Virus record (IMG/VR): IMGVR_UViG_3300049893_003686
Strand: one strand, 5' to 3'
Length of the DNA: 64,000 nt
Origin: a virus
Shown: in pieces, positions 1 through 47,038 of the stretch
Position numbering within the stretch: position 1 is the stretch's first letter
Layout: each line of letters opens with the position of its first letter
Translations under genes and position numbers: made by a program
The notes under the pieces: generated by a model
What the model was told of the DNA's origin: nothing
The model's database searches: none
The model's input: the letters and a program-made list of their open reading frames with translations, nothing else

Positions 1-160
1 GGGCTTCTAGGGCTTATAGGGCTTCTAGGGTTTCTTGGGCTTCTGAGGCTTCTGTGGCTTCTTGGGTTTCTGGGGCTTATAGGGCTTCTTGGGTTTCTGT
101 GGTTTCTGGGTTTTCGGTGGTTTATAGAGGTTATGTGGTCTCTATAGTAAGAGGCGGTAG

Positions 161-412
161 ATGATTTCTTATGCTGTAGTTTATTTTTATTCTGGGGCTT
201 CTAGGGCTTCTGGGGCTTCTGGGTCTTATAGGGCTTCTGGGTCTTATAGGGCTTCTTGTGTTTCTAGGGCTTCTTGGATTTCTAGGGTTTCTGGGGTTTC
301 TGTGGCTTCTGTGGTTTCTGGGGCTTCTTGGGCTTCTTGGGCTTCTGGCGCTTCTAGGGCTTCTAGGGTTTCTGGGGTTTCTTGGGTTTCTGGAGTAAGG
401 GGTGGTAGATGA
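161..412 (+). CDS. Candidate small repeat protein (unit A1): N-terminal [10 protein letters not shown] followed by (A/V)-S-(G/R/W) triplets, ending RGGR
   Basis: AAGAGG lies 6 nt upstream of the ATG. The TGA stop overlaps the next ATG (ATGA). Low-complexity sequence, so coding status is unproven. Confidence 0.3.
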
Positions 413-678
413 TTTCTTATGCTGTAGTTTATTTGTATGGCGGGGCTTCTTGGGCCTCTAGGGCTTCTGGGGCTTCTAGGGCTTCTGGCGCTTCTGGGGC
501 TTCTGGGGCTTCTGGGGCTTCTGGGGCTTCTAGGGTTTCTAGGGTTTCTGGGACTTCTAGGGCTTCTTGGGCTTCTTGGGTTTCTAGGGCTTCTGGGGCT
601 TATAGGGTTTCTTGGGCTTCTGGGGCTTCTTGGGCTTCTGGAGGTTGTGCAACCTCTATAGTAAGGGGTAGTAGATGA
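409..678 (+). CDS. Candidate small repeat protein (unit A2)
   Basis: AAGGGG-N6-ATG and ATGA junctions at both ends; same (A/V)-S-(G/R/W) frame as unit A1. Confidence 0.3.
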
Positions 679-971
679 TTTCTTATGCTGTAGTTTATTT
701 TTATTCTGGGGCTTCTGGGGCTTCTTTGGTTTCTGGGGCTTCTAGGGCTTCTTGGATTTCTGGGGCTTCTAGGGCTTCTAGGGCTTCTAGGGCTTCTAGG
801 GCTTCTAGGATTTCTGAGGCTTCTGTGGCTTCTTGGGTTTCTGGGGCTTCTGGGGTTTCTGGGGCCTCTGGGGCCTCTGGGACTTCTAGGGTTTCTGGGG
901 CTTCTAGGGCTTCTTGGGTGTCTAGGGTTTCTTGGATTTCTAGGGCTTCTAGAGTAAGAGGCGGTAGATGA
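675..971 (+). CDS. Candidate small repeat protein (unit A3)
   Basis: Same architecture as units A1 and A2. The following copy (ATG 968) runs out of repeats and terminates after ~25 codons. Confidence 0.3.
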
Positions 972-1601
972 TTTCTTATGCTGTAGTTTATTTTTATGGT
1001 GAGGTTTCTGACGCTAACTCATATAGTAGGATATAAGGATCTATCTTTGACGCAGTAGCATCTACATCGGGATTACATCTTGATATAGCTGTTCGTGAGC
1101 ATAATTTTAATTTTCGCAAAGATCAATAGTTGCTAATAATATAGTTTATGATAAATAGCCTAAGTCTAATCCTTAATGTCTATCTATATAGAGATTTGCA
1201 ACAAACCTTATATCAAGGTCCGCAGTCAGTGGGTTATCGGTGTTTATGATTCTTCCCACTACATCATATAGACCTTATTACCAATATAGCTTAATTTAAA
1301 GCCCCGGATTGTAACTGGGAGATGCGAGCTTATATGCTCGCTATTGGTATTTGTAATTTACATATAATCGTATGCCAGTCGCACATACATCTGCTTATAG
1401 CACTTCGATATAATTATAGTTTATTCTGCTTAGAGGGCCATGTGATTACTTCATCACAGGCAGTCTAAAGCGATTTAAACCTTCTTGAAGAAAGCAATTA
1501 TATACACTAGAAAAATACCTAACCTAGATTAAGGAAGGGTAATTCCGTCAGAGGCAATTTTCTACTGCTATCGTATATGATTTTTATATCTCTACACTAG
1601 A

Positions 1602-1715
1602 AGGTTAATATCTTAGCGTCCAAGATATTAAATACTTTTGCGAAAAAACCGATCTATAAGATCACTGAGATCGCGGGGGAAAATATTCTTAGACAAATGC
1701 ATAGGGCGATCCGAG
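1602..1715 (+). repeat. Direct repeat copy 1 (114 bp) inside the gene-free core
   Basis: Matches 2172-2284 with 3 differences seen (two substitutions and one G indel in ..ATCACTGAGATCGCGGGGGA..). Contains the hairpin AATATCTT-agcgtcc-AAGATATT and the palindrome GATCT-ATA-AGATC. Confidence 0.95.
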
Positions 1716-2171
1716 TCTATACTTACTATTATTTCCTCAAGTAAATATATCCTAAGTACCCTATATAATTCTACGAGTTTATTCGACTAATGAGATTCTT
1801 CTTTTCGCGGCCAATAAATGGCACAGCCAGCTACTAGAAGCGCCTCATATTCGGTATAAACGCATTTTATAATAATAATTCTGAGCAACCCGCATAGGCC
1901 ATCTGGGCACCCATTTGGGTCTACTGTAATCATGTATATTTATAAGATTTTATCAAAGCCACTAGTGTGTGAAAAATATATTTGGGTTAATAAATTACTA
2001 ATCTACAATATCCTGCGGCAATTTTATAGTAGGCATCGCAGGTTGCAACATTTTCTATCTTGAAGATGGCGATAAGAATCCATTATATAGCGAGCGTTCT
2101 CACCAAGTGGAAATGTGTCACATCACATTAAGACAATCGTATATAGAGACATCCAGCAATAAATACCGCAT

Positions 2172-2284
2172 AGGTTAATATCTTAGCGTCCAAGATATTA
2201 AATACTTTTGCGAAAAAACCGATCTATAAGATAACCGAGATCGCGGGGAAAATATTCTTAGACAAATGCATAGGGCGATCCGAG
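2172..2284 (+). repeat. Direct repeat copy 2 (113 bp) inside the gene-free core
   Basis: See copy 1; same orientation, about 570 bp downstream. Confidence 0.95.
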
Positions 2285-2630
2285 GATTGGATCTAACACT
2301 ACTAGATCTATTCTAATACAATAGATAGTAACTTTAATTCTCTATATGTTAACCATACTCTAAACTTAAGAGTAATTCTAATCTACCAATATCATGCCTT
2401 TGCTATAAGATCTCCGATATCTATCAAAGCTATAAGTGCGTAATAATTTTTATTAGGTTAATACATTATTAACATTAATATAAATAACTGCCTAAATTCT
2501 ACACCCTAAGTCGCATTTCTTCAGATAATTAACTACACATTAACTGTGTGGGCAGCATACAGATGAGTTTGGTAACAGCTAACCCTAAAAACCTATACGA
2601 CATCATAATATAGCTATGGAGAGCGACGAG

Positions 2631-2846
2631 ATGATTTCTTATACGGCAATTTATTGGTATGGTGAAGATTCTAATACTTATGGGGTTTCTAGGGTTTCTG
2701 GGGATTATAGGGCTTCTTGGGCTTCTGGGACTTCTTGGGATTCTGCGGCTTCTAGTGTTTCTAGGGCTTCTAAGGTTTATAGGGCTTCTTGGGTTTCTGG
2801 GGTTTTTTGGGGTTATGTAATCTCCAGAGCAAGGAGTGGTCAATGA
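2631..2846 (+). CDS. Candidate small repeat protein (unit B1)
   Basis: The homologous ATGATTTCT start is at 2631; the ORF track extends it to an upstream ATG at 2616. ATGA junction at 2843-2846. Confidence 0.25.
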   Translation: MISYTAIYWYGEDSNTYGVSRVSGDYRASWASGTSWDSAASSVSRASKVYRASWVSGVFWGYVISRARSGQ

Positions 2847-3031
2847 TCTCTCATGCGACAGTTTATCTTTATGGTGGAGCTTATTGGACTTCTAAGGCTT
2901 CTAAGGCTTCTGGGATTTCTAAGGCCTCTTGGATTTCTAAGGCTTCTGGGGTTTCTAGGGTTTCTATGGCTTCTAGGGCTTCTGGGGGTTATGGGAGCTA
3001 TATAGTCTCCAGAGCAAGAGGTGGTAGATGA
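2843..3031 (+). CDS. Candidate small repeat protein (unit B2)
   Basis: AAGGAG lies 6 nt upstream of ATG 2843. ATGA junctions at both ends. Confidence 0.3.
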
Positions 3032-3279
3032 TTTCTCATGTGGGAGTTTATTTTTATTCTGTGGCTTCTTTGGTTTCTGGGGCTTCTTTGGTTTCTAGGG
3101 CCTCTAGGGCTTCTAGGGCTTCTAGGGCTTCTGTGGCTTCTGGGGCTTCTGGGGCTTTTAGGATTTCTGGGGTTTCTGGGGCTTCTTTGGTTTCTATGAC
3201 TTCTGGGGTTTCTGGGGCTTCTGGGGTTTCTGGGGCTTCTGGGGTTTCTGGGGTTTCTGGGGCAAGAGGTGGCAGATGA
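3028..3279 (+). CDS. Candidate small repeat protein (unit B3)
   Basis: AAGAGG-N6-ATG and ATGA junctions at both ends. Confidence 0.3.
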
Positions 3280-3551
3280 TTTCTCATGTGGGAGTTTATT
3301 TTTATTCTGGGGCTTCTTGGGTTTCTTGGGTTTCTGGGGTTTCTGTGACTTCTTGGGTTTCTAGGGTTTCTGGGGTTTCTGGGGTTTCTGTGACTTCTGG
3401 GGTTTCTGGGGTTTCTGGGGCTTCTGGGGTTTCTAGGGCTTCTAAGGCCTCTATGGTTTCTGGGGCAAGAGGTGGTAGATTATTTCTCATGTGGGAGTTT
3501 ATTGGTACGGCGAGGTTACTGGAGCGGACCTATTCGTATAGGAATAGATAA
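3276..3551 (+). CDS. Candidate small repeat protein (unit B4), reading through a decayed fifth linker
   Basis: AAGAGG-N6-ATG. The next junction is mutated (AGATTA instead of AGATGA), so the ORF continues to 3551. Confidence 0.25.
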
Positions 3552-6133: not shown

Positions 6134-7243
6134 ATGCATGATGAAATCAATGTTGGAGTTGTAATCGGAAGATTCCAACCTCTACACATCTGTCACCTCT
6201 CAGAGGCGATCTTGCCCGCCCTAGATGAATCAGACACATTAATCATTCTTCTCGGATCATCGCACAGACCAAGTACACCTAAAAATCCATGGACGGACTC
6301 TGATAGGGCGGAGATGATTCATCTTGGCCTAAAAGACGCAGGGATGACCGTAGAGGCATATGGAAATTGGTTATTAAAGATAGGTGCGAGTGACACTACT
6401 CAAAAGACGGTATATATTGTTCCAATAAGAGACTTTGCTTATTCAGATATTCAGTGGCAGATGCAAGTGCAGGAGAAAGTAAGAGAGATCGTTTCATCCT
6501 GCTCAAATCTCGATAGCAAATATGAATCTGCAAAAATTAATCTATTTGGAGTAGATCGTGATGATACCACATTCTACCTTAAATTATTTCCTCAATGGAT
6601 AGATAAAACAACTAAGCGGGATAAGAGCTCCGATCAAGTTAAGGGCACAATGTGCAGAGAGCTGATTTTTGCTAGCGGCGCAAAAGGTCATGGGGAGTGG
6701 GGAAAGTACTTGTCACCCCAGGTATCAGAATTCATATTAAATTGGTGTAACTCAATATCATTTTCATCACTTAAAGAAGAGTTTGATTTTCTCAAACGAT
6801 ATAAGGCAGACTTATCTGGATATAAATATCCAATTATATTTCAAACAGTAGATAATATTATTCTATATAAGGGGCACGTCTTCTTGCTAAATAGGAGGAG
6901 TTTCCCTGGAAAAGGATTGCTATCTTTACCGGGCGGGTTTATAGATTCCAGTCTAACTCTACTTCAGAGCGCGCTATCTATAGCCAAAGAGAAAAGTAAA
7001 CTTAATCTTAAATTAGACTGGCTTGTAGCAAGCAAGACTTTCGATTATCCCGGACGCTCACTAAGAGGCAGGACTATCACTACAGCATTTCTCTGGAAAT
7101 TACCCGAGACAATGAATGTAATAGTTGCAGGGGCAAATAAAGAACACTGGTATCAGCTATGCGATATCATGAAAATGAGTGATTTCTTATATGAAGATCA
7201 CTATGATATCATAATTGATATGCTACAGCTTAGCAAGACATAA
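6134..7243 (+). CDS. Bifunctional-type nicotinamide-nucleotide adenylyltransferase (NMNAT) with a C-terminal Nudix-like domain
   Basis: The N-terminal GRFQPLHICH matches the cytidylyltransferase (H/T)xGH motif of NadR/NadM-type NMNAT. The C-terminal LPGGFIDSS..LSIAKEKSKL is a degenerate Nudix box that has lost the REx2EE acidic residues. Confidence 0.8.
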   Translation: MHDEINVGVVIGRFQPLHICHLSEAILPALDESDTLIILLGSSHRPSTPKNPWTDSDRAEMIHLGLKDAGMTVEAYGNWLLKIGASDTTQKTVYIVPIRDFAYSDIQWQMQVQEKVREIVSSCSNLDSKYESAKINLFGVDRDDTTFYLKLFPQWIDKTTKRDKSSDQVKGTMCRELIFASGAKGHGEWGKYLSPQVSEFILNWCNSISFSSLKEEFDFLKRYKADLSGYKYPIIFQTVDNIILYKGHVFLLNRRSFPGKGLLSLPGGFIDSSLTLLQSALSIAKEKSKLNLKLDWLVASKTFDYPGRSLRGRTITTAFLWKLPETMNVIVAGANKEHWYQLCDIMKMSDFLYEDHYDIIIDMLQLSKT

Positions 7244-7286
7244 GTCGATATACGACGCATATAACTTATTTTCGGAGGAATATACC

Positions 7287-8768
7287 ATGGAATTTTCAAA
7301 ATTTCTACATACTGACAGTTATAAATTAGCTCACTTCGAGCAATATCCAGCAGCCAAGAAGATGGTTGCTTATGGTGAATTTCGCAAGCCGTATCCTAAT
7401 ATTAAAGATGAGCGAATTGTTGTATACGGCATACAGTATTTAGTAGATAAATTTTTAAACAAACAGTGGACGGTAGAAGAACTTAATGCCGCATCACAAT
7501 TTGCCAGCAAACATAATGCTGGTTTAAAAGAATACCCATTTCCTCGGAAATTATTTACCGACATGATTGCTGAAAATAACGGATACTTTCCAGTTAAGGT
7601 AGAGGCTGTTCCGGACGGAACAGTGGTATACCCACATGTGCCAGTGTATCAGATTACAGCAGAGGGGAAGTATTCGGGTCTGGTAACATACATCGAAAGT
7701 TTTCTGTCGCACTTATGGTATTCAACTACTGTAGCAACTCTTTCACGACATACTAAAACACTTATCAAAAATGCGTTCGATCTTACTGTAGATGATAATA
7801 TGAGGTGGTTACTTGGGAGTCGATTGCATGATTTTGGTTATCGAGGCTGTGCGTCTGATGAGCAGGCTATGATCGGAGGTGCCGCACACCTACTTAATTT
7901 TGATGGTACAGATACGATGCTAGCTGCTGCATATGCACACTATCAAAATAATGGAGAAGAATTTGCACAAAGTATTCCAGCTACAGAGCATTCGGTAATG
8001 ACATCATGGCCATCAGAAGTTGATGCAGTTCGAAATATGATCCACCACTACGGAGATGGTGTATTTGCCTGTGTAGCTGATAGCTATGACTATAAGCACT
8101 TTCTTCATCATGTATTGCCAGCAGTAGCAGCTGATGTGCAGGCTAAGGGCGGCACAATGGTAATTAGACCAGACTCTGGCGATCCACTTAAATCAGTGAT
8201 AGACGGACTCTATGCTTGTCAAAGATATTTTGGAATATCCTATAATAAAAAGGGATTTAAGGTACTGAACAATAGCGCAATAATTCAAGGTGACGGCATT
8301 AATATAGAGATAGTTGATAACATACTTACTGAGGTTATTAATAATGGATTCAGCGCACAGAACGTAGCCTTCGGCATGGGCGCCGGCCTATTACATAAAC
8401 ATAATAGAGATACTATGAGTTTTGCCACTAAGTTATCATATATTGAATATGCAGATGGGACAAGTAGGAACATTATGAAGGCACCTAAAACGGATCCGGA
8501 GAAGTACTCACTACCTGGTATACTTAAGGTAATTAATGATGACCTATTGAAGGTTGGAACAGAAGAAGATCGTGGTAATAACTTGCTGATAACAGTGTAT
8601 GATGGCAGACCAGTAGATTTTAAAGAGAAATTTTCTAACATCCGCGCTAAGGTAGAACATCAATGGAATCTCTTACCGCCTAAAGTAGAAAACCTATTTA
8701 CAGATAAGTTAAAGATGAAGATAAATGAGACAATCTTTAACTTAAGAAATAGCACGTCCAAATCCTAA
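7287..8768 (+). CDS. nadV: Nicotinamide phosphoribosyltransferase (NAMPT)
   Basis: The N-terminal HTDSYKLAHFEQYP matches the TDSYK signature. CGGAGGAA SD at 7273-7280. The length (~493 aa) and the GYRG and GDG blocks fit NAMPT. The track start at 7215 is probably an upstream extension. Confidence 0.9.
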   Translation: MEFSKFLHTDSYKLAHFEQYPAAKKMVAYGEFRKPYPNIKDERIVVYGIQYLVDKFLNKQWTVEELNAASQFASKHNAGLKEYPFPRKLFTDMIAENNGYFPVKVEAVPDGTVVYPHVPVYQITAEGKYSGLVTYIESFLSHLWYSTTVATLSRHTKTLIKNAFDLTVDDNMRWLLGSRLHDFGYRGCASDEQAMIGGAAHLLNFDGTDTMLAAAYAHYQNNGEEFAQSIPATEHSVMTSWPSEVDAVRNMIHHYGDGVFACVADSYDYKHFLHHVLPAVAADVQAKGGTMVIRPDSGDPLKSVIDGLYACQRYFGISYNKKGFKVLNNSAIIQGDGINIEIVDNILTEVINNGFSAQNVAFGMGAGLLHKHNRDTMSFATKLSYIEYADGTSRNIMKAPKTDPEKYSLPGILKVINDDLLKVGTEEDRGNNLLITVYDGRPVDFKEKFSNIRAKVEHQWNLLPPKVENLFTDKLKMKINETIFNLRNSTSKS

Positions 8769-14627: not shown

Positions 14628-17222
14628 ATGAATCCAGGCAAATATACACTACAAGCACAGTCTCTATTTATTGACAGCCAGCGAATTGCTAAAGCATATC
14701 AGCACCAGGCAATTGAGCCCGAGCATATGCTGAAGGCACTATTGCAAAATAAGCATGTCTGCAGTGCATTAAGCAAATATACTATCATTAGCGAGCTTGA
14801 GCGTAAAATAGATTTAGAACTACATAAGATACCTCAAGTGCAGGCAGTGAATTATTTGTCACCACGATTTCTTAAAATTGCTTCTGCAGCAGAGGTAATC
14901 GCTACAAAAGCAAACGTTAAGACCGACATAGTGCATTTCTTACTAGCTCTTACCGACGCACGTGTAAATACTTCGATGAGCGGAAGAATATTGCGCGATG
15001 CGGGCTTGACCAGAGAGTATATCGAAGGTGGTATGGCAAGAGCTGGTAAGCCAAAGCAGAAAGCAACAACGGACTCTGCAGTTAGCAAATACGCCATTGA
15101 TCTCACTCAGCGCGCTAGGGACGGGAAAATAGACCCTATAATTGGCAGGGACGAGGAGATACGTAGAATCATTCAGGTTCTCTCCCGACGTTCGAAGAAT
15201 AGTCCAATTCTAATAGGCAAACCAGGTGTAGGGAAAAATACAATTATAAATGGGCTTGCACAGCGAATTGCGGCAGGAGATGTCCCATCCCCACTAATAG
15301 ATTGTAGAATCATGGCGCTAGATATGGGAGCGCTGTTGGCCGGAGCATCATTGCGTGGCCAATTCGAAGAGCGCATGAAGGCAGTAATTGCTGAGGTAAA
15401 TCAAGAAGATGAGAATATCATTTTGTTTATCGATGAAATCCATACATTGGTAGGAGCCGGTGGAGAGGGGGCATCTGATGCTAGTCAGATGCTAAAACCC
15501 CCGCTTGCTCGTGGCGAGATTCAGGTACTTGGAGCTACCACACCAGACGAATATCGCAATTCAATCGAGAAAGATAAGGCTTTGGAGCGTAGATTCCAAC
15601 CCATTCTTGTCGAAGAACCATCATATGATGAGACATTGCGAATTTTACGCGGAATAAAGACCAAATATGAAGTTCATCACGGGGTTCGCATCCAAGATGC
15701 TTCCCTATCTGCTGCCATAAAGTTCTCACAACGGTATATATCTGGACGACATCTACCAGATAAAGCCATTGATTTAATTGATGAGGCAGCCTCTAGGTTG
15801 CGGGTGGCAATAGATTCTGTGCCAGATGAGCTTGATAGTGAAAGTAGAAAGCTAACTCAATTAAAGATGGAATTAGCTGCAATTCATGGTGACTCTGGAC
15901 ACGATACGCACGAGCATAAGAGTAGATTGGAGCATCAAATTTCAGAGGCGGAGAAATCAGTATCAGGATTGAAGTCCAGATGGGAATCCGAGGTTAGCCT
16001 TATACAATCAATTAGGGCTATCAAGGAAGGTATAGAAGAGTCTAGCGCTAAGCTAGAATCCGAAACTAGAAGTGGAAATATAAGCAAGGCCTCAGAATTA
16101 AAGTACGGACAACTACAACGTCTAAAGGCAGATTTAGAAGTAACTACACGCGATTTAAAATCACTACAAAAAGATGCCCCGCTTATCAAAGAAGAGGTAG
16201 ATCCTAGCGATATTGCCGGCGTAGTAGGTGACATTACAGGAATTCCAATTGCATCAATGCTAGAGTCCGAAAAGGAAAAGCTGCGCAACATGGAACAGTA
16301 CTTATCATCACGTGTAATTGGACAAAAGGAGGCATTAAAGGCGATATCTCAAGCCATTCGCCGTAGTCGCTCAGGCCTTAATGATCCAAATCGACCAGTA
16401 GGTAGCTTCTTTTTTCTGGGCCCAACAGGTGTCGGGAAAACTGAGTTAGCTAAAGCGCTTACCCAATTTCTCTTTGATGACGAACGATCTATGATTCGCT
16501 TGGATATGAGTGAATTCCAAGAAAAGCATACTGTAGCGCGACTTATCGGAGCTCCTCCAGGATATAAAGGTGCCGATGATGGAGGGCAATTAACTGAAGC
16601 CGTCAGACTTAAACCATACTCAGTCATCCTATTTGACGAAGTAGAAAAAGCGCACCCTGATATATTCAATATATTATTGCAAGTACTTGATGATGGTCGA
16701 CTAACAGATAGTCAGAGTAGGCTCGTAGATTTCAAGAATACGGTTATTATTATGACATCAAATGTAGGTTCGCAGCATCTACTTACAGCTACAGCCAGTG
16801 ATGGCAGTCTGCCTGATGAGGCAAAAAATGCAGCATTCTCCGATCTACGAAAGTTATTTAGACCAGAATTTCTTGGAAGAATTGATGACGTAATCATGTT
16901 TCACGGTCTCACCAGAAATAATATAGAACATATTGCCAACATTCAACTAAAGAAAGTTTCAGGAATGTTGGCGACACGTAAATTAACGATGAATATATCA
17001 GAAGCAGCACTTAAGGCCATAGTAGATGCTGGGTTTGAGCCACAATTCGGAGCACGACCATTAAGAAGAGCAATCCAGCGTTGGCTGCAAGATCCATTAT
17101 CTTCAGCTATTCTTGAAGGGGGCTACACAGAAGGTGACACCGTATCTGTAGATTTAGCAGAGGATGATGAAAATACAGGCCTTATATTTAGGCGTATAAA
17201 CACTAATGTGAAAAGCAACTAA
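14628..17222 (+). CDS. clpB: ClpB-type AAA+ disaggregase
   Basis: Clp N-domain, two Walker A loops (GKPGVGKN and GPTGVGKT), a long coiled-coil middle domain between them, and 864 aa. Confidence 0.95.
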   Translation: MNPGKYTLQAQSLFIDSQRIAKAYQHQAIEPEHMLKALLQNKHVCSALSKYTIISELERKIDLELHKIPQVQAVNYLSPRFLKIASAAEVIATKANVKTDIVHFLLALTDARVNTSMSGRILRDAGLTREYIEGGMARAGKPKQKATTDSAVSKYAIDLTQRARDGKIDPIIGRDEEIRRIIQVLSRRSKNSPILIGKPGVGKNTIINGLAQRIAAGDVPSPLIDCRIMALDMGALLAGASLRGQFEERMKAVIAEVNQEDENIILFIDEIHTLVGAGGEGASDASQMLKPPLARGEIQVLGATTPDEYRNSIEKDKALERRFQPILVEEPSYDETLRILRGIKTKYEVHHGVRIQDASLSAAIKFSQRYISGRHLPDKAIDLIDEAASRLRVAIDSVPDELDSESRKLTQLKMELAAIHGDSGHDTHEHKSRLEHQISEAEKSVSGLKSRWESEVSLIQSIRAIKEGIEESSAKLESETRSGNISKASELKYGQLQRLKADLEVTTRDLKSLQKDAPLIKEEVDPSDIAGVVGDITGIPIASMLESEKEKLRNMEQYLSSRVIGQKEALKAISQAIRRSRSGLNDPNRPVGSFFFLGPTGVGKTELAKALTQFLFDDERSMIRLDMSEFQEKHTVARLIGAPPGYKGADDGGQLTEAVRLKPYSVILFDEVEKAHPDIFNILLQVLDDGRLTDSQSRLVDFKNTVIIMTSNVGSQHLLTATASDGSLPDEAKNAAFSDLRKLFRPEFLGRIDDVIMFHGLTRNNIEHIANIQLKKVSGMLATRKLTMNISEAALKAIVDAGFEPQFGARPLRRAIQRWLQDPLSSAILEGGYTEGDTVSVDLAEDDENTGLIFRRINTNVKSN

Positions 17223-25708: not shown

Positions 25709-25792
25709 GGGCCAGTAGACGCGCTCCGCTCATAACGGAGTAAGGGTAATTTGGTTCTGAAAATGTGGGTTCAAGTCCCACCTGGCCCACCA
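25709..25792 (+). tRNA. Atypical tRNA-like element, copy 1 (CAU anticodon loop, no canonical D arm, 24-nt variable region, CCA encoded)
   Basis: Acceptor GGGCCAG/CTGGCCC. Hairpin CTCCG-CTCATAA-CGGAG. T arm GTGGG-TTCAAGT-CCCAC. Discriminator A followed by CCA. Only 8 nt (TAGACGCG) lie in the D-arm position. Identical to 42249..42332. Confidence 0.5.
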
Positions 25793-25936
25793 TTTACACG
25801 TACTCAATTCCTAATCTGACGTACGGTAATAGAATGATTAGGATCTCACTCTTCGGGATTTAAGAGCAACCCTTTAGCCTTAGGCGTTGTAGTACGGAGA
25901 GAAAAGGCCATCTTCTTTTAAGGAGAGCGTCAGCTA

Positions 25937-28430: not shown

Positions 28431-28510
28431 GAGAATTAATCTAGATATAAGGTCACATTAACTATAACTATAGCGTCATGCTGGCGTATATAGGAATAAT
28501 CGGAGAAAAG

Positions 28511-30802
28511 ATGAAGAAATATATTTTCGCAACGCTACTGCTCGCAACTACAGCGGCAGCATCAAATAGCGATAAATCTCATCATGAAAAGGTGGAGATT
28601 TGTCATAAGGATCATCATGAAATTAGTGTCGACGAGCATGCTGTCGAGGCGCATATTGATCACGGCGATTGTCTCGGGACATGTCCATGCGCCCCATTGC
28701 CAGAATGCCAATCTGATGCTGATTGTACTAACGATCTATTCTGTGATGGCAACGAATCATGCCTCAATGGAAGCTGTGTGGCAGGAGAGTCTCCGTGTGA
28801 GCACAGCTTATCATGTGACGAAGTGGAAGACCTATGTGTGCAACAGCCAGATTGCATTACCGATAGCGATTGTGACGACGGAGTATTTTGTAATAATCAA
28901 GAATTATGTTTAAATGGCTCCTGTGTTTCTTTTGGAGATAGTCCATGCCCAGACTACATTTGTGTAGAAAAGTATGCCATATGCGTATTGCCACCAGAGT
29001 GTCATGTAGATGACGATTGTACGAATGGACTATTTTGCGACGGGCACGAATTATGTTCAAATGGAGCATGCGTATCCAATGTACTTCCATGCCCTGAAAC
29101 AGAACAGTGTGACGAAGAATCTGATGCTTGTTTTAATGCAGGTGAGGGTGAAGGAGAAGGCGAGGGAGAAGGTGAGGGTGAAGGAGAAGGCGAGGGAGAA
29201 GGTGAGGGTGAAGGAGAAGGCGAGGGAGAAGGTGAGGGTGAAGGAGAAGGCGAGGGAGAAGGTGAAGGCGAGGGTGAAGGTGCCGAGAAAACAAACTTAT
29301 TTGTCTCAGGGTCAGGGATTTTTTCATGCTCTGAGTCATCATCTCCAGACCTGTTTATACTTGCACTATTCTTGCCAGCACTGCTAATATCACAAAAGCG
29401 TAGGGCACTAGTAGCAACCTTAGTAATTGGACTATTTTCATTCTCTGCTTCTGCAGAAGGATTAAATCGTGTAGGTGGCCCAACATCATTTAACGATTCC
29501 CCGCAAGCATCATCAGCGGATCTACTGCCTAACCTTACATTGCAGACTGGTCTAAACTTAGATTACTCGCATGCTCCATTGGTGCTCAGAGACGTAGCTT
29601 TTATTAAGCATAGTGATTTGGTCGAACACCAATTCTCAAGTAGCATCAATGCAGCAATGGGATTTCGCGATGTCGTGCAATTAGATCTAGCATTGCCCAT
29701 TTCAGTCGCAACAGGACAGGGTTTAAATTTGGATGGAACACCATCAGCTGGTCTTCAGGATATGACAGCTGGTGTTAGATTGCGGTTGACTGACAGCAAA
29801 GCACCATTACGCACTGCCCTTAGCCTTAAAGGTACGATGCCAACATCGCTATTGTCATTTAATGGAATGCCAACATTTGGAGAGGTATTCCCGACGCTTA
29901 CCCCAGGAGTCTTACTTACTGCCGGCAATGAGTTGGCATCAGTTACACTAAATACAGGATACACTATTCGTATTCCTAAAAATGTAGCGGATCTTCAAAT
30001 GGGACATACTGTAAATGCAGCTGTAGGTGGACAACTGTGCTTACTTAAAGATAGCTTGTGGTTAGTCGGAGATGTTGGCACAAGTCTATCAGCACAAGGC
30101 TTGTTTACAAATCGATTATTTATGCCAGTAGAGGCGACACTTGGCTTTAAAGGAAAGCACGGTCCTTTCTATGGAATGGTAGCCGCTGGCTCTGGGCTAT
30201 TGCCCGACGTTGGGACCCCTGATGTGCGCGTTTTGGCTTCATTAGGTCTTAATTTTGACTTTGCAACTAAGCAGAAAGCACGTACCACTAGCAAGTTAGT
30301 TACAGAGCATAATCCTCTGCCACCTCCACTTGATTCCGATGGCGATGGGATCCTTGATCAAGATGATAAGTGTCCAAATGATCCAGAGGATTTTGATGGA
30401 TTTGAGGATTCAGATGGGTGCCCAGAGCAAGAGTTAGTAGTAATAGAGTCAGAAAAAATCATATTGTTATCCCCAGTGTACTTTTTCTTTGACTCAGATC
30501 AAATTAAACCAGAAAGCTTTCAAGTATTGAATGATGTGGCAACTGTACTAAAAGAGCATACTGAGATTAAGCTATTGTCTATTGAGGGGCATGCCTCAGC
30601 AGAAGGTGAATTGGATTATAACCAAGCACTTAGTGAACGCCGAGCTTTGGCAATAGTAAAATTCCTCCAAAAGGCAGGAGTTGCTACAGAACGACTTGTT
30701 GCACTCGGGCATGGAGAGAATAATCCGGCTGAATCAAATAAGACAAAAGCTGGACGTGAAAAAAATCGCCGCGTAGAGTTTCGTATTCTAGAAAAGCAGT
30801 GA
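28511..30802 (+). CDS. Composite OmpA-family envelope protein: signal peptide, 4 Cys-rich repeats, (EG)n tract, internal sorting-signal-like/TM pair, putative beta-barrel region, thrombospondin type-3 (DxDxDG) repeats, OmpA C-terminal peptidoglycan-binding domain
   Basis: GGAGAAAAG SD precedes ATG 28511 (MKKYIFATLLLATTAAAS). Four repeats match DxDCxxxxFCxGxExCxNGxC. The TSP3 repeats read DSDGDGILDQDDKCPNDPEDFDGFEDSDGCPE. The OmpA_C domain reads ..IEGHASAEG..YNQALSERRA..NRRVEF. Confidence 0.85.
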   Translation: MKKYIFATLLLATTAAASNSDKSHHEKVEICHKDHHEISVDEHAVEAHIDHGDCLGTCPCAPLPECQSDADCTNDLFCDGNESCLNGSCVAGESPCEHSLSCDEVEDLCVQQPDCITDSDCDDGVFCNNQELCLNGSCVSFGDSPCPDYICVEKYAICVLPPECHVDDDCTNGLFCDGHELCSNGACVSNVLPCPETEQCDEESDACFNAGEGEGEGEGEGEGEGEGEGEGEGEGEGEGEGEGEGEGEGEGEGEGEGAEKTNLFVSGSGIFSCSESSSPDLFILALFLPALLISQKRRALVATLVIGLFSFSASAEGLNRVGGPTSFNDSPQASSADLLPNLTLQTGLNLDYSHAPLVLRDVAFIKHSDLVEHQFSSSINAAMGFRDVVQLDLALPISVATGQGLNLDGTPSAGLQDMTAGVRLRLTDSKAPLRTALSLKGTMPTSLLSFNGMPTFGEVFPTLTPGVLLTAGNELASVTLNTGYTIRIPKNVADLQMGHTVNAAVGGQLCLLKDSLWLVGDVGTSLSAQGLFTNRLFMPVEATLGFKGKHGPFYGMVAAGSGLLPDVGTPDVRVLASLGLNFDFATKQKARTTSKLVTEHNPLPPPLDSDGDGILDQDDKCPNDPEDFDGFEDSDGCPEQELVVIESEKIILLSPVYFFFDSDQIKPESFQVLNDVATVLKEHTEIKLLSIEGHASAEGELDYNQALSERRALAIVKFLQKAGVATERLVALGHGENNPAESNKTKAGREKNRRVEFRILEKQ
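29141..29282 (+). repeat. Perfect 30-bp tandem repeat x4 plus a partial copy, encoding (GE)n inside the OmpA-family gene
   Basis: GGTGAGGGTGAAGGAGAAGGCGAGGGAGAA occurs at 29141, 29171, 29201 and 29231 with no mismatch seen. A divergent partial copy spans 29261-29282. Confidence 0.95.
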
Positions 30803-30857: not shown

Positions 30858-31628
30858 ATGAGCAGTAATGAACTTGGTTTGAAGATTAAAAGTTTATATG
30901 AAAATCGTACACGACTCTTGCTAGATCAAGATGAGTATATAATTATCAGAATTGATGGTAAGAATTTTTCAAGATATACTCGTAAGCTCAAAAAGCCATT
31001 CGATCAGGATCTTGCAGATGATTTCGACCAAACTGCTAAGATATTGTGCTCTCAAATCATGGGAGCACATATGGCATATACTCAAAGTGATGAGATAAGT
31101 ATTGTAGTTTCGAATTTTAGTTCTTCAGGTAAGGACATCTGGTTTAACGGAAATATACAAAAAATAGTTTCAGTATCATGTTCAATGGCAACAGCATCAT
31201 TTAATGATTCAAGAATAAAGCGAAGTGTTGATTATAAAGGTGGAATTTTTGATTCTAGGGTATTTACAATACCTGATCGCTCATCAGTATTAGAGTATTT
31301 AACCTGGAGACAAAAGGATGCAAGTAGAAATTCCATTTCCATGATTGCAAGAAGCGTAATGAGTAGTAAAGAAATGCATGGAATTTCTACTGGCAAAATA
31401 ATAGAGATTTTAAAAGATAGAGGAATAGACCTCAAAATATATAATCAAGGTCTATTGTATGGAAGAATTATTTTCAAAGAAAAATTTACAGTAACCGCTA
31501 CTCATAGTGAATACGGGATTGCTCAAAATTCTGATTCACTCAGAACAAGATGGGTAGCTAAGACAGCACCAAATTTCTCTAAAGAAGACATTTCCATAGA
31601 ATTGATTCCAGAAAGAAAGCTTTCTTGA
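30858..31628 (+). CDS. Thg1-like protein (tRNA-His guanylyltransferase / 3'-5' polymerase family, TLP)
   Basis: IIRIDGKNFSRYT..KPFDQDLADDF..MAYTQSDEISIV matches the Thg1 palm-domain blocks. Confidence 0.8.
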   Translation: MSSNELGLKIKSLYENRTRLLLDQDEYIIIRIDGKNFSRYTRKLKKPFDQDLADDFDQTAKILCSQIMGAHMAYTQSDEISIVVSNFSSSGKDIWFNGNIQKIVSVSCSMATASFNDSRIKRSVDYKGGIFDSRVFTIPDRSSVLEYLTWRQKDASRNSISMIARSVMSSKEMHGISTGKIIEILKDRGIDLKIYNQGLLYGRIIFKEKFTVTATHSEYGIAQNSDSLRTRWVAKTAPNFSKEDISIELIPERKLS

Positions 31629-37852: not shown

Positions 37853-39460
37853 ATGTCAATATTAAATACCGATGCAACTCAAACTCAGATATATGATAAT
37901 CGACAGATAAGAAATTCTGCTGGCGGCTATTCATTTGCAGTGGAAAATATGGATTATGTGCGGCGATTTCTAATTTTAGGAAGCGAGGGCGCGCAATATA
38001 GCCTACAGAATAGGCCAACTCTGTCGTTAGAGAACTGCCCGCATATATTGTTTATGCTAGATGCCGATGGCCAAAAAGTAGTAGAAGAGCTGGTCAAGGT
38101 ATCATTACAAGGCAGGGCGCCGAAGCAAGAGCCGACACTATTCGTATTAGCACTGGCAGCTAGACATAAGGATCTCGCTGTGCGTAAAGCCGCATTTGAT
38201 GCCGTGCAGAAGGTATGTCGCACAGCAACTATGCTATTTACCTTCTTAGATTTCTATAAAAAGTCCGGGGTGACATCTGGCTGGGGTCGCCTTATGCGAG
38301 ATGCGATATCGTCATGGTATAATAATAAGGATTTGCAATCTTTAATATATCAAGTTACGAAATATGGTAGTAGAAATGGGTGGTCGCATCAAGATGTGCT
38401 ACGTTTAGCACACACAAGGCCAGTAGATCAAGATCATTCTCTGTTATATAAGAAGATTACTTCTAAAAATAAGTTTAATATCGACATCAATATCGCTTCT
38501 GATAAGAATGCTTTTAATAAACTGCTAGCCATTGAAGCGGTGAAATTAGCAACAGAGGCAAAAAGTATCATCCCGTTAATTACAGAATTTAATTTAGTAC
38601 ATGAGCAGGTACCATCATCGCTAAAGCTTTGTCCCGATGTATGGGATGCATTGCTAGATAATATGCCATTAACTGCATTAATTCGTAATCTAGGAGCGAT
38701 GACATCCTCCGGGTTGCTTGTTAATGGAAATAGTGCTTCAAGAAGAGTGAGAGAAAAGCTATCTAATTTAGATACAATTAAGAGTGCAAGAATACATCCA
38801 TTTAATGTACTCACAGCATACAATACCTATGCAAAAGGAGTTGGTCAATTAGGTCACAAAAAATGGAACCCTAGTGAAGATATTATTGAAGCGCTAGATA
38901 GCCTATTCTATACCTCATTTACATTTATAGATCCATCGCATAAGCGCACACATCTCGCTATTGATGTATCGCGTTCGATGGATATGGGTACAATTCTTGG
39001 CTCGCCGGGGATGTCTCCTCGATTCGGCGCAGCCGCAATGTCAATGGCAACGCTGCGTTCTGAGGATAATGTTTCGATGAGCGCATTTTCGCATACATTA
39101 GTACCGCTACAATTTTCACCCAAAGATGATTTGCAGACAGTTATCAAGAAGATGAGGTCTATTAAAATGGGCGCCACAGATTGCGCCCTACCAATAACCA
39201 CTGCCATGCAGTCGAAGACCCCTATTGATACATTTGTTATATATACCGATAATGAAACTTGGTTCGGAAACGTTCACCCAATGGCAGCATTGCGCCAATA
39301 TCGAGATAGAATGGGAATTCCTGCCAGACTCATTGTCGTTGCAATGAAAGAAACAAACTTTACCATTGCAGATCCCGAAGATGCGGGTGCATTGGATGTA
39401 GTTGGATTTGATTCTGCCACTCCAGCTGTCATAGCAGAATTTTCACGCGGGGAGTTATAA
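37853..39460 (+). CDS. Ro60-related TROVE-domain protein with a C-terminal vWA domain
   Basis: The N-terminal NSAGGYSFAVENMDYVRRFLILGSEGAQY is characteristic of Ro/Rsr. The MIDAS DxSxS motif appears as IDVSRSM. 535 aa. Confidence 0.9.
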   Translation: MSILNTDATQTQIYDNRQIRNSAGGYSFAVENMDYVRRFLILGSEGAQYSLQNRPTLSLENCPHILFMLDADGQKVVEELVKVSLQGRAPKQEPTLFVLALAARHKDLAVRKAAFDAVQKVCRTATMLFTFLDFYKKSGVTSGWGRLMRDAISSWYNNKDLQSLIYQVTKYGSRNGWSHQDVLRLAHTRPVDQDHSLLYKKITSKNKFNIDINIASDKNAFNKLLAIEAVKLATEAKSIIPLITEFNLVHEQVPSSLKLCPDVWDALLDNMPLTALIRNLGAMTSSGLLVNGNSASRRVREKLSNLDTIKSARIHPFNVLTAYNTYAKGVGQLGHKKWNPSEDIIEALDSLFYTSFTFIDPSHKRTHLAIDVSRSMDMGTILGSPGMSPRFGAAAMSMATLRSEDNVSMSAFSHTLVPLQFSPKDDLQTVIKKMRSIKMGATDCALPITTAMQSKTPIDTFVIYTDNETWFGNVHPMAALRQYRDRMGIPARLIVVAMKETNFTIADPEDAGALDVVGFDSATPAVIAEFSRGEL

Positions 39461-40764: not shown

Positions 40765-40938
40765 ATGCAAACCATACACTTATTCATCTTTATTATGATA
40801 GTTGGCGTGACGCCACACTTGTATATATTATCAGTAATTTTAAAGAGACAAATCAGGAGTATTTATGACCGATCCAAACAATACTACAGACGCAAATACA
40901 GCAGCAATCTGCATGGCAATACAGCACCTCTTGATTAA
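40765..40938 (+). CDS. Possible holin-like small membrane protein
   Basis: ATG lies 3 nt after the peptidase stop. A TM core (IHLFIFIMIVGVTPHLYILSVIL) is followed by a basic tail. It overlaps the next, SD-led gene by 74 nt, which weakens the call. Confidence 0.3.
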   Translation: MQTIHLFIFIMIVGVTPHLYILSVILKRQIRSIYDRSKQYYRRKYSSNLHGNTAPLD

Positions 40939-41161
40939 AAAGGGAGTATGTTCATATAATGAGCTGGTCGAAGCCAATGGTAAGGCGCAGAAAGTTTTAG
41001 AGAAAATTTACGCATCTGTTTCAGATGAAAGTGGCAACATTAATGCCTTACATGAATCTGTTAAAGATATGTTAATGTTTATTGGAGGAGAAGAGGCAAT
41101 GCCCTCATTAGAAGCTGCATTTGCACGTGCAGCTGATTTGACCCCAGAGGAGAATGAATAA
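40865..41161 (+). CDS. Hypothetical protein
   Basis: Strong AGGAG SD; 98 aa. Confidence 0.6.
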   Translation: MTDPNNTTDANTAAICMAIQHLLIKKGVCSYNELVEANGKAQKVLEKIYASVSDESGNINALHESVKDMLMFIGGEEAMPSLEAAFARAADLTPEENE

Positions 41162-41677
41162 GTGGCTCTAATAGGATTCAATCCACGTCATAACTATGAT
41201 GTACGACTTACTATAGAAGATGGCCCGCAACTTGGAGTTTATAAGTTACAGGATGCAATAAGAATTGCCACAGAGCGTGGATTGGATCTGGTAAATATAT
41301 CGCCGCAAGCTAAGCCGCCAGTAGCAAAGATAATGGATCATGGTCGGTTCAAGTATCGCCAAAAGCAGGCTGCTAAAGAGGCTAAGAAGAAGCAGCATGT
41401 GGTTGTGCTCAAAGAAATCAAATTAGGCGTAAACATAGAGAGGCACGATCTTGATGTTAAGCTATCTAAGATTAAAGAATGTATTGTTGATGGATGCAAG
41501 GTAAAGATTGTCATTCGATTCTATGGTAGAGAAAACGCTCATAAGGAACTCGGTTCTACATTGATGGATGCAATTCTTACGGAAATCAAAGATTTTGTCA
41601 TAATAGAAACCCCACCTACCTCAGAACGCAGGGAGATTTTCGCTATAGTGAGACCTAAAAATGATAAAAAAGCTTAA
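41162..41677 (+). CDS. infC: Translation initiation factor IF-3
   Basis: The N-domain reads VRLTIEDGPQLGVYKLQDAIRIATERGLDLV, the linker reads KYRQKQAAKEAKKKQ, and the C-domain reads LKEIKLGVNIERHDLDVK..FYGRENAH. The predicted GTG start abuts the upstream stop. Confidence 0.9.
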   Translation: MALIGFNPRHNYDVRLTIEDGPQLGVYKLQDAIRIATERGLDLVNISPQAKPPVAKIMDHGRFKYRQKQAAKEAKKKQHVVVLKEIKLGVNIERHDLDVKLSKIKECIVDGCKVKIVIRFYGRENAHKELGSTLMDAILTEIKDFVIIETPPTSERREIFAIVRPKNDKKA

Positions 41678-41822
41678 AACAATAGCATATACTCTTGCTG
41701 GAACTACAGTTACGCTAGCATCACTAATTTATATTGAGAGGGCGCTCAGCAATATTATTTTAAAGCATGCAAGTAAGCATGCTCGTAAGATTAATAGTGT
41801 AGATGAGAAAAATGACAGATAA
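41661..41822 (+). CDS. Possible 53-aa membrane peptide overlapping the infC end
   Basis: Begins MIKKLKTIAYTLAGTTVTLASLIYIERAL.. and is below the track cutoff. It overlaps both neighbours by 17-20 nt. Confidence 0.3.
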   Translation: MIKKLKTIAYTLAGTTVTLASLIYIERALSNIILKHASKHARKINSVDEKNDR

Positions 41823-42201
41823 TATACTATATGTTGATTTTAAGAATAAAAAACGAATAGAACACTCCATTGCAGAGGCCCCATCTGCAGTGCCTACATT
41901 GTTTAATGAAAAAAGGCGGAGATTCCTAGAGCTACTAGAACTTGGCATTGTCCGGACGGTATCTTCTGGTAATGATCCAAATCTATTGCTTCCACAGCAC
42001 ATATACGCTCAAGAAGTTCATTTAAATTGGAGCTCTAAATTTCTGATATCAGATTTAGTGATCAATGATAATGGTATAAGTGGAACATTATCATTTAATC
42101 AAACGCCATCGCATGTTACGGTACCGTGGAGTTCTATTATTTCCATGTGGAGCCTCAGTCATCCAAAAGATTATAGATTCGACTGGGATATAAATGAGTG
42201 A
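41803..42201 (+). CDS. SspB-like (ClpXP adaptor family) protein
   Basis: ..HLNWSSKFLISDLVINDNGISGTLSFNQTPSHVTVPWSSIISMWS aligns by eye with E. coli SspB ..LNIAPRAVGNLELANDEVRFNARFGGIPRQVSVPLAAVLAIYA. Confidence 0.5.
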   Translation: MRKMTDNILYVDFKNKKRIEHSIAEAPSAVPTLFNEKRRRFLELLELGIVRTVSSGNDPNLLLPQHIYAQEVHLNWSSKFLISDLVINDNGISGTLSFNQTPSHVTVPWSSIISMWSLSHPKDYRFDWDINE

Positions 42202-42248: not shown

Positions 42249-42332
42249 GGGCCAGTAGACGCGCTCCGCTCATAACGGAGTAAGGGTAATTTGGTTCTGA
42301 AAATGTGGGTTCAAGTCCCACCTGGCCCACCA
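42249..42332 (+). tRNA. Atypical tRNA-like element, copy 2 (identical to 25709..25792)
   Basis: The 84 nt are identical by eye, including the CCA. Identity continues for 3 nt (TTT) downstream, while the upstream flanks differ. Confidence 0.5.
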
Positions 42333-42346
42333 TTTTAACATCTTAG

Positions 42347-46702: not shown

Positions 46703-47038
46703 ATGAATTCAACACAAGATTCACAAGTCAAGAAATTCTTAAAGCAAGTTGGAAATATCGTTGCCGTACAGGCCGTTGCAGGAGCAGTTACAGAGTTAGG
46801 CAAAAAGGTTTGGCCGAAGGCAAAGGAAAAGCTTAATTTTGTACTAGACAAGGCTGAGGAATTACAGAAGGCCAAAGAGATGCGTCAAGGTTTAAATGAT
46901 CTTGTTAAGGATACAACATCGCATTATAAGCGAGTGCGTAAAGTTAGTAAAGAGGACCTTGCTGCACAATTAGATGCTCAGCTATCAGAAGATCCGCCAG
47001 TAGATGCAACTTTTGCAGAGGATAGTAGCAGTGAGTAA
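46703..47038 (+). CDS. Hypothetical protein
   Basis: 111-aa ORF. Confidence 0.55.

Follow-up and report, generated by a model that had tools for sequence, protein, structure and literature searches.

A probable phage-encoded translation initiation factor IF3 with a GTG start codon and a replaced Arg131

The 64,000-nucleotide (nt) stretch of DNA in IMG/VR virus record IMGVR_UViG_3300049893_003686, called the window below, carries a gene for translation initiation factor IF3, the product of infC in bacteria. In the list of open reading frames (ORFs) of the window it appears as an ORF of 171 amino acids (aa) with a GTG start and a TAA stop. We propose that the gene most likely lies on a huge-phage genome and, with a probability of roughly 0.6, that it encodes a functional copy of bacterial IF3 working through the mechanism described below. 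Phage-encoded IF3 is already known as a kind. In the literature examined, we found no description of three of its features reported here, namely the loss of the AUU-class start codon in phage copies, the retention of GTG on the genes of both IF3 and IF1, and the loss of Arg131. The coordinates of the features are collected in Table 1.

The preliminary description of this DNA had recognized both IF3 domains and the Lys-rich linker between them, and profile and structure searches confirmed all three. The protein scored 176.6 bits with the NCBIfam infC equivalog model TIGR00168 (cut-off 60, E 3.5e-52), and both domains were matched by Pfam. We built an AlphaFold model on 19 sequences, which reached a predicted local distance difference test (pLDDT) score of 86.9. 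The model has an alpha/beta N-domain, a long linker helix and a beta-alpha-beta-alpha-beta-beta C-domain, and the Lys-rich linker RFKYRQKQAAKEAKKKQ is predicted to form a single helix. The best Foldseek matches of the model were 30S-bound IF3 (5lmn_X, template modelling (TM) score 0.77); it also matched 1tig (TM 0.91, target-normalised), 1tif (TM 0.79) and mitochondrial IF3 in 6rw4 and 6neq. In a phmmer search of PDB sequences, IF3 of Geobacillus, E. coli and Thermus aligned with the protein over its whole length, at 40-41% identity. Taken together, the match to IF3 lies far beyond chance. The G+C content of the gene (40%) is close to that of the window (39%).

The window IF3 has close company in environmental sequence data. 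The protein itself is found on a 13-kb Logan contig, a copy 99% identical to it on a 65-kb JGI contig, and nine more distinct relatives with 54-81% identity on contigs that reach 368 kb; the clade counted below has ten distinct members. It is small and deeply diverged, and was seen on no contigs other than syntenic, phage-like ones. The larger of these contigs include a 368-kb JGI contig with protein P0002 and the 229-kb JACCDR010977450.1. Among 1.84 billion representative proteins, three clusters at 50% identity comprised the clade together with P0074 and P0075, two more distant proteins that have the N-terminal motif in common with it. A search of metagenome contigs with the clade alignment gave, among the matches listed, only bacterial-like IF3 at ≤51% identity and no new clade members. 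It had been proposed that the protein be placed phylogenetically against host IF3. A neighbour-joining tree was therefore built from 74 IF3 sequences. In it, the core members of the clade, nine in number, grouped together with 100% bootstrap support, and the tenth (locus L191) joined them in only 44% of replicates. The clade stood apart, without a specific bacterial sister, and other phage IF3 sequences from IMG/VR were not its nearest neighbours. The best cellular matches, 41-49% identical, came from Bacillota, Gemmatimonadota, Alpha- and Zetaproteobacteria, Rokubacteria and others, and no donor phylum stands out. In pairwise codon comparisons, the proportion of synonymous differences (pS) was 0.72-0.95, which is saturated between all members, and that of nonsynonymous differences (pN) was 0.10-0.38. 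Saturated pS with low pN indicates strong purifying selection, so the gene is no decaying fragment of host DNA.

We then considered where translation of IF3 begins. An in-frame TAA (41159-41161) directly precedes the GTG, so that an N-terminal extension further upstream is impossible. The only other in-frame ATG, GTG or TTG codons before residue 59 are a TTG at codon 41 and an ATG at codon 58, and a start at either would drop most of the N-domain. The GTG is thus the sole start for a full-length IF3, as the preliminary description had concluded. A Shine-Dalgarno (SD)-like motif precedes it, and such a motif occurs 6-10 nt before the IF3 start in all ten clade members. The N-terminus lies within one residue of that of Geobacillus IF3 in the phmmer alignment, giving a protein of Bacillus-type length, and residues 2-12 (GFNPRHNY) are kept among the relatives. 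We also weighed the ATA of codon 4 as a possible AUU-like start and rejected it, since this codon is 18 nt away from the SD-like motif and conservation of the N-terminus begins at residue 2.

The TAA before the GTG is the stop codon of an upstream ORF, which we named orfU. Nine of the ten clade loci have a homologue of orfU ahead of IF3 (85-113 aa, with the motifs MAxQHxLxxKGxC and FIGG), and a different ORF takes this place in L191. Across the clade the IF3 start adjoins or overlaps the upstream stop, as TAA followed directly by GTG, as GTGA or ATGA, or as TAG sharing its G; in L190 the two are separated by a 4-nt gap. orfU had no match in Pfam, NCBIfam or PHROG, and a homologue search with it returned only orfU itself. 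A single-sequence structure model of orfU was all-helical and of low confidence (pLDDT 58.7) and was not used. A readthrough fusion of orfU and IF3, which are in frame in the window, was rejected, because the frames differ in most relatives. At stop-start junctions with an SD sequence, about half of translation comes from reinitiation and about half from de novo initiation (PMC3592434). The infC gene of E. coli starts 3 nt from the thrS stop codon (PMC3592434), so coupling to an upstream gene has a cellular precedent. No terminator-like site was found on the plus strand between 39400 and 43400.

Eight of the ten distinct clade members start IF3 with GTG, and the other two with ATG. Bacterial infC, as the preliminary description had stated, typically uses a non-canonical AUU-type start. 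This agrees with the literature, in which infC uses an AUU or AUC start and is autoregulated (PMC5499595), and with our own count of 78 bacterial infC loci, in which the in-frame candidate with the best SD motif was taken as the start. By this heuristic, ATT, ATC or ATA was found in 59 loci, CTG in 6 and ATG, GTG or TTG in 3; no candidate in the remaining 10 loci was backed by an SD motif. An AUU-class or CTG start was therefore present in 65 of the 68 SD-backed loci. None of the phage IF3 copies, whether from the clade, from 14 other IMG/VR loci or from three cultured huge phages, has an AUU-class start. The starts outside the clade are GTG, TTG or ATG, with GTG in Atu_ph07 and Phosso and TTG in Vibrio phage 2.275.O. 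The rplT gene, probed by L20, adjoins infC in 51 of 80 bacterial loci and adjoins IF3 in 0 of the 10 clade loci and 0 of the 14 other IMG/VR loci.

The view of the GTG as the counterpart of the autoregulatory AUU does not hold. AUG, GUG and UUG are all canonical for IF3, and a 10-fold excess of IF3 left a GUG mRNA unaffected in rich-medium extract and lowered it by 20-25% in minimal-medium extract, whereas an AUU mRNA fell by more than 60% (PMC5499595). Since GUG is canonical for IF3, the GTG of the phage gene is not equivalent to the autoregulatory AUU. Thus, AUU-class control is lost in the phage IF3 copies and is not retained in an equivalent form, and the phage gene probably escapes repression by IF3.

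The GTG start extends to a second initiation factor. An IF1 gene lies 5.4 kb downstream of IF3; its product scored 80.7 bits with TIGR00008 (cut-off 61), matched PF01176 and aligned over its full length to solved IF1 structures. An SD-like AGAGGA (47017-47022) stands 8 nt before its GTG. Five relatives have IF1 at the syntenic position, with a GTG start in four; with the window included, five of six loci use GTG. Neither factor exceeds about 49% identity to a cellular copy. The suggestion that many genes in the window use GTG or TTG was not supported when start codons were counted: among 173 externally called genes of six clade loci, 152 start with ATG (88%), 16 with GTG and 5 with TTG. Ten of the 16 GTG starts belong to IF3 or IF1 genes, and GTG accounts for about 4% of starts elsewhere in these loci. 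The persistence of GTG on both factors despite saturated synonymous divergence points to selection on this codon rather than inertia. Candidate targets of this selection are a modestly lower output, poorer competition of GUG at low temperature or under ppGpp (PMC5499595), and a weak residual sensitivity to IF3.

Next, we compared the residues through which IF3 works. R25, Q33 and R66 of E. coli IF3 contact the elbow of the initiator tRNA (PMC9723500), and these contacts are kept across the clade, as R15, Q23 and K56 in the window IF3. The equivalents of Y75, D106, K110, R133 and R168 (Y65, D96, K100, R123 and R157) are conserved in the clade, and the equivalent of E. coli H137 is also kept in the window IF3. 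With these residues in place, the phage IF3 would be expected to bind the host 30S platform like the cellular factor. The infC362 allele is given as Y75N in the literature, not as R131P.

The basic residues of the C-terminal domain tell a different story. Comparing the 50 bacterial sequences of the tree alignment with the ten clade members, we found Arg or Lys at E. coli position 112 in 48 of the bacteria versus Asn, Ala, Ser or Gly in the clade, with Lys in one member. At position 116, Arg or Lys in 44 bacteria is replaced by Glu in nine members and Gln in one, and at position 147, Arg or Lys in 40 bacteria is replaced by Ser, Ala or Asp. Position 99 is Arg in 34 bacteria and, in the clade, Gly in nine members and Arg in one. 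Overall, the C-terminal domain carries a net charge of about +1 in the clade and of about +4 in bacteria.

A further change concerns Arg131 in the RFRGR motif. This position is Arg or Lys in all 50 bacteria and, in a wider motif scan, in 157 of 157 other IF3 sequences. In the clade it is His in six members and Gln, Ser and Arg in one each, and the window IF3 has Tyr in place of a basic residue. R131 contacts start-codon bases +2 to +4, and the E. coli R131P variant permits non-AUG starts, leaderless mRNAs and unconventional initiator tRNAs (PMC11775629). The distant relatives P0074 and P0075 retain R131, which implies that the change was derived within the core clade; His in the IF3 of Vibrio phage 2.275.O (RLHGR) is an independent change. 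Loss of R131 together with a less basic C-domain suggests proofreading unlike that of the host factor, probably less stringent.

This bears on a plainer explanation, in which phage IF3 and IF1 have host-like specificity and simply sustain or raise the factor-to-ribosome ratio while host expression collapses. Such a supplement would speed initiation and keep subunits apart, like the rise of IF1 and IF3 in cold shock. The conservation of most functional residues, the strong purifying selection on IF3, the co-occurrence of IF1, and the retention of Arg or Lys at position 131 by other phage IF3 lineages and by P0074 and P0075 all fit it, as does the bias of cold-shock translation by a raised IF1/IF3-to-ribosome ratio (PMC6511846, PMC5499595). 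Under unchanged specificity, however, neither His, Tyr, Gln or Ser at a position that is Arg or Lys in every other IF3 scanned, nor the loss of R112, R116 and R147 with the accompanying drop in charge, would be expected. We hold this explanation to be possible, though rather doubtful.

The same losses could also be read as signs of a decoy, a phage protein that fills the IF3 site or binds an IF3 partner, does not sustain normal initiation and so shuts off host translation. Several basic C-domain residues are gone, the charge at the position of E. coli R116 is reversed, and purifying selection implies a function without saying which one. On the other hand, the tRNA-elbow contacts and the equivalents of Y75, D106, K110, R133 and R168 are retained, a phage IF1 co-occurs, and a general block would harm a phage that depends on the same ribosomes. 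We therefore consider a decoy or inhibitor highly improbable.

The idea that a viral IF3 re-tunes start-site discrimination is supported in part and indirectly, by the change from Arg131 to Tyr. The phage genes themselves are ordinary in their start-codon use. Of the sequence evidence, only the R131 change bears on such re-tuning, and it is suggestive and no proof. By a crude count, SD-like motifs precede about half of the phage genes.

Other translation genes accompany IF3 in addition to IF1. The window has one standard tRNA gene (Arg-TCT) and a Thg1-like tRNA-His guanylyltransferase gene (30858-31628, plus strand), and the relatives L002, L185, L187, L190 and L191 have among them genes for the peptidyl-tRNA hydrolase PTH2, YqeY and HisRS-like fragments. 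The relatives also carry tRNA arrays of up to nine tRNAs, including a type II tRNA-Tyr. The type II form of tRNA-Tyr is the bacterial one, which indicates that the host is a bacterium.

A tRNA-like gene of 87 nt occurs twice in the window in identical form, the second time some 570 nt beyond IF3. Acceptor stem, T arm, anticodon arm (with anticodon CAU) and an encoded CCA are all present; only about 6 nt are left of the D arm, and the variable region measures 24 nt. ARAGORN made no call for it. It was not found in the relatives or in IMG/VR, from which its exact 24-mer is also absent. The GGG/CCC pairs that mark bacterial initiators are missing from the anticodon stem, and G1 pairs with C72. 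We also considered it as the Y-RNA partner of Ro60 and rejected this, because the long tRNAs next to Ro60 in the relatives are ordinary type II Tyr or Ser tRNAs and are not homologous to it; no Y-RNA partner of the window Ro60 was identified. A more far-reaching version of altered checking would be re-engineered proofreading, in which host 30S subunits loaded with phage IF3 and IF1, both expressed together and IF3 free of autorepression, accept what host IF3 would turn away: weak or non-canonical, leaderless or reinitiating starts, or an unconventional initiator. The tRNA-like gene with its CAU anticodon and without a D arm could be such an initiator. We regard this version as unlikely.

Is the contig viral? 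About 90% of the window ORFs are on the plus strand, and many are small and without known relatives. The window genes include those for a ClpB-like protein, nicotinamide phosphoribosyltransferase (NAMPT) with a cytidylyltransferase, ATP-dependent DNA ligase, Ro60/TROVE, Thg1, HSP20, VanY, dCMP deaminase, an FtsK-like protein, subtilase, a helicase, dUTPase and a DNA methyltransferase. An rIIA-like protein belongs to phrog_6077, a family found in 110 phage records and annotated as rIIA once. For the helicase, the closest matches (about 25%) are jumbo-phage helicases, among them that of Bacillus phage G and that of XacN1. A megablast search of GenBank phages with 20 kb around IF3 gave no match.

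The gene order of the relatives reads HSP20, DHHA1, Ro60, in some PTH2, then VanY, orfU, IF3, a small ORF, an SspB-like gene, uracil-DNA glycosylase (UDG), a metallopeptidase, dCMP deaminase and FtsK, followed further on by IF1 and later by subtilase. Its core (Ro60-VanY-orfU-IF3, dCMP deaminase-FtsK, IF1 and subtilase) is shared by seven loci. One syntenic relative, 142 kb long, is the IMG/VR entry IMGVR_UViG_3300043177_000268. Type II tRNA-Tyr or tRNA-Ser genes follow Ro60 in the relatives. Counterparts of the 53-aa ORF at the 3' end of IF3 (48-54 aa) stand at a similar position in L002, L183, L187 and L189.

We looked for virion genes in PHROG and Pfam scans of 40 window proteins and, beyond the syntenic region, along about 30 kb of IMGVR_UViG_3300043177_000268 (L202, L206). 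Neither the 64-kb window nor this part of the related contig yielded a capsid, portal or terminase gene; the genes recognized in the latter were limited to NUDIX, glycosyltransferase and epimerase genes. The AAA ATPase and the DNA methyltransferase, used as queries, had no match on IMGVR_UViG_3300043177_000268. The glycosyltransferase and nucleotide-sugar epimerase genes form a cluster downstream of the syntenic region (L202 14124-20829, L206 10678-20637).

The missing capsid, terminase and portal genes, along with many cellular homologues (ClpB, PyrD-like, NAMPT, glycosyltransferases), would fit part of a bacterial genome of an unusual kind, or else a large plasmid, with the organism's own divergent infC. 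Such an origin is very unlikely, as several observations oppose it. A syntenic relative is listed in IMG/VR; rpmI-rplT does not adjoin infC; the start is not AUU-class, unlike 96% of bacterial loci; and IF3 and IF1 are diverged from cellular copies to the degree given above. Phage-typical families are present (the rIIA-like protein of phrog_6077, ATP-dependent ligase, and PTH2 as in jumbo phages, PMC7824862), as are dense one-directional arrays of small orphan ORFs and tRNA clusters. The viral origin of the contig is well supported, if indirectly, and we consider it very probable.

Based on the above, we propose the following mechanism for a phage copy of IF3. The protein would be made from a transcript that also encodes orfU, and would be translated by coupling to, or reinitiation after, orfU as well as by SD-dependent initiation. 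Its start would be a canonical but weak GTG, free of autorepression by IF3. Phage IF3 and IF1 would together raise the factor-to-ribosome level during infection. The phage IF3 would occupy the host 30S platform like its cellular counterpart, and there promote the formation of initiation complexes and prevent subunit association for phage messages; its altered C-terminal domain would probably change the strictness of start-site checking. The identity and fold of IF3, the selection on it, its start codon, the geometry of its junction with orfU, its context and its residue changes were observed directly in the analysis; we infer the 30S binding, the escape from autoregulation, the benefit to phage translation and the altered fidelity.

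Several points weigh against this proposal. The two clade members with an ATG start show that GTG is preferred and not required. The loss of four or five basic C-domain residues could mean weaker binding to 30S or a different role, and His, the commonest replacement of Arg131, may partly substitute for Arg. No virion gene was recovered, as described above, and the literature searched contains no biochemical or genetic test of any phage IF3.

The clade and cellular infC offer a testable contrast, in which an autoregulatory start is lost, IF1 accompanies the factor, and a natural substitution affects the residue that checks the start codon. If start-site selection is indeed altered, this would be a virus that reprograms the first checkpoint of bacterial translation, and a natural IF3 of relaxed fidelity would become available for studying that checkpoint. 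If the protein behaves like the host factor, the gene would add another case to an auxiliary type that is already known.

Table 1. Positions of IF3, IF1 and associated features in the 64-kb window
Feature	Position	Strand	Remarks
IF3 (infC homologue)	41162-41677	+	TIGR00168 score; AlphaFold model resembling IF3 structures in PDB
IF3 N-terminal domain, residues 13-74	41198-41383	+	Pfam IF3_N PF05198, E 1e-23
Lys-rich linker helix, residues 60-77	41339-41392	+	AlphaFold secondary structure; includes Y65, which corresponds to Y75 in E. coli
IF3 C-terminal 30S-binding domain, residues 82-166	41405-41659	+	Pfam IF3_C PF00707, E 4e-24; Foldseek match to 1tig
RFYGR, counterpart of RFRGR	41516-41530	+	Y121 in place of Arg131
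SD-like AGAGGAG	41146-41152	+	9 nt before the IF3 GTG
orfU, 98 aa	40865-41161	+	TAA stop abuts the IF3 GTG; no family match
Sigma-70-like promoter match	40802-40831	+	weak, consensus match only; in the 103-nt gap before orfU
Small 53-aa ORF	41661-41822	+	overlaps the IF3 3' end by 17 nt
IF1 (infA homologue), 74 aa	47031-47255	+	GTG start overlapping the upstream ORF stop
tRNA-like gene, 87 nt, two exact copies	25709-25795, 42249-42335	+	Rfam tRNA, 42.1 bits
Ro60/TROVE + vWA protein	37853-39460	+	RNA quality-control factor; adjoins the IF3 block in all relatives

Additionally, we noticed other features of the window, all on the plus strand. A weak SspB-like adaptor ORF (41803-42201) lies just downstream of IF3, and a ClpB-like two-ring AAA+ protein of 864 aa is encoded at 14628-17222. 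A pair of NAD salvage genes (6134-8768), an NMNAT-like cytidylyltransferase followed by nicotinamide phosphoribosyltransferase, resembles those of some large phages. A protein of 774 aa (28478-30802) has a C-terminal OmpA domain and an internal Gly-Glu repeat, the latter encoded by DNA with 12- and 18-nt periodicity at 29110-29300. At 1-3550 there is a family of small ORFs with a common 44-nt repeated 5' end (nine copies) and internal repeats of 9-nt periodicity. Separately, an 81-nt repeat occurs at 1602 and 2172.

Compared with bacterial IF3 of known structure from E. coli, Geobacillus stearothermophilus and Thermus thermophilus (5me0, 8jsg, 5lmn), the window IF3 shows no difference in its domain pair, which a Lys-rich helix likewise connects, and its length is that of Bacillus-type IF3. 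It differs in having RFYGR for RFRGR, in the replacement of R99, R112, R116 and R147 by Gly, Ser, Glu and Ala, and in the conserved N-terminus GFNPRHNY that is the clade's own. Its gene differs from bacterial infC in having GTG in place of AUU, AUC or AUA and in not being followed by rpmI-rplT.

Initiation factors have been reported from huge phages of metagenomes, as the preliminary description correctly stated (PMC7162821). Al-Shayeb et al. 2020 described genes for IF1 and IF3 in huge phages, Iyer et al. 2021 noted IF3 in jumbo phages (Atu_ph07), and in 2025 IF3 was noted in E. coli phage Sharanji; PTH2 has been described for jumbo phages (PMC7824862). The IF3 copies of Atu_ph07, Phosso, Vibrio phage 2.275.O, Sharanji and the Al-Shayeb phages are likewise phage-borne among translation genes, with a canonical ATG, GTG or TTG start and no adjoining ribosomal-protein operon, as here. 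However, they are only 32-41% identical to the window IF3 and are not nearest to it in the tree, which makes the clade a separate lineage; most of them keep Lys or Arg at position 131, and only Vibrio phage 2.275.O has His. Their neighbours are a ClpX-like gene in Agrobacterium phage Atu_ph07 and Sinorhizobium phage Phosso, and S21 in Vibrio phage 2.275.O.

Replacement of Arg131 is also known from E. coli R131P and from mycoplasma IF3, which has Pro, Phe or Tyr at this position (PMC11775629); the window has Tyr and its relatives mostly His, Gln or Ser. However, the mycoplasma traits of frequent non-AUG starts, SD-less mRNAs and an altered uS9 have left no sign in the phage clade, where 88% of genes start with ATG, SD-like motifs are many and TGA is a stop codon. 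The mitochondrial factor IF-3mt is another diverged IF3 with an altered RFRGR (KKGK), and leaderless and non-AUG initiation is tolerated with it. In this divergence it is like the window IF3, but the two are only 24% identical, and the N- and C-terminal extensions of IF-3mt are absent from the phage protein.

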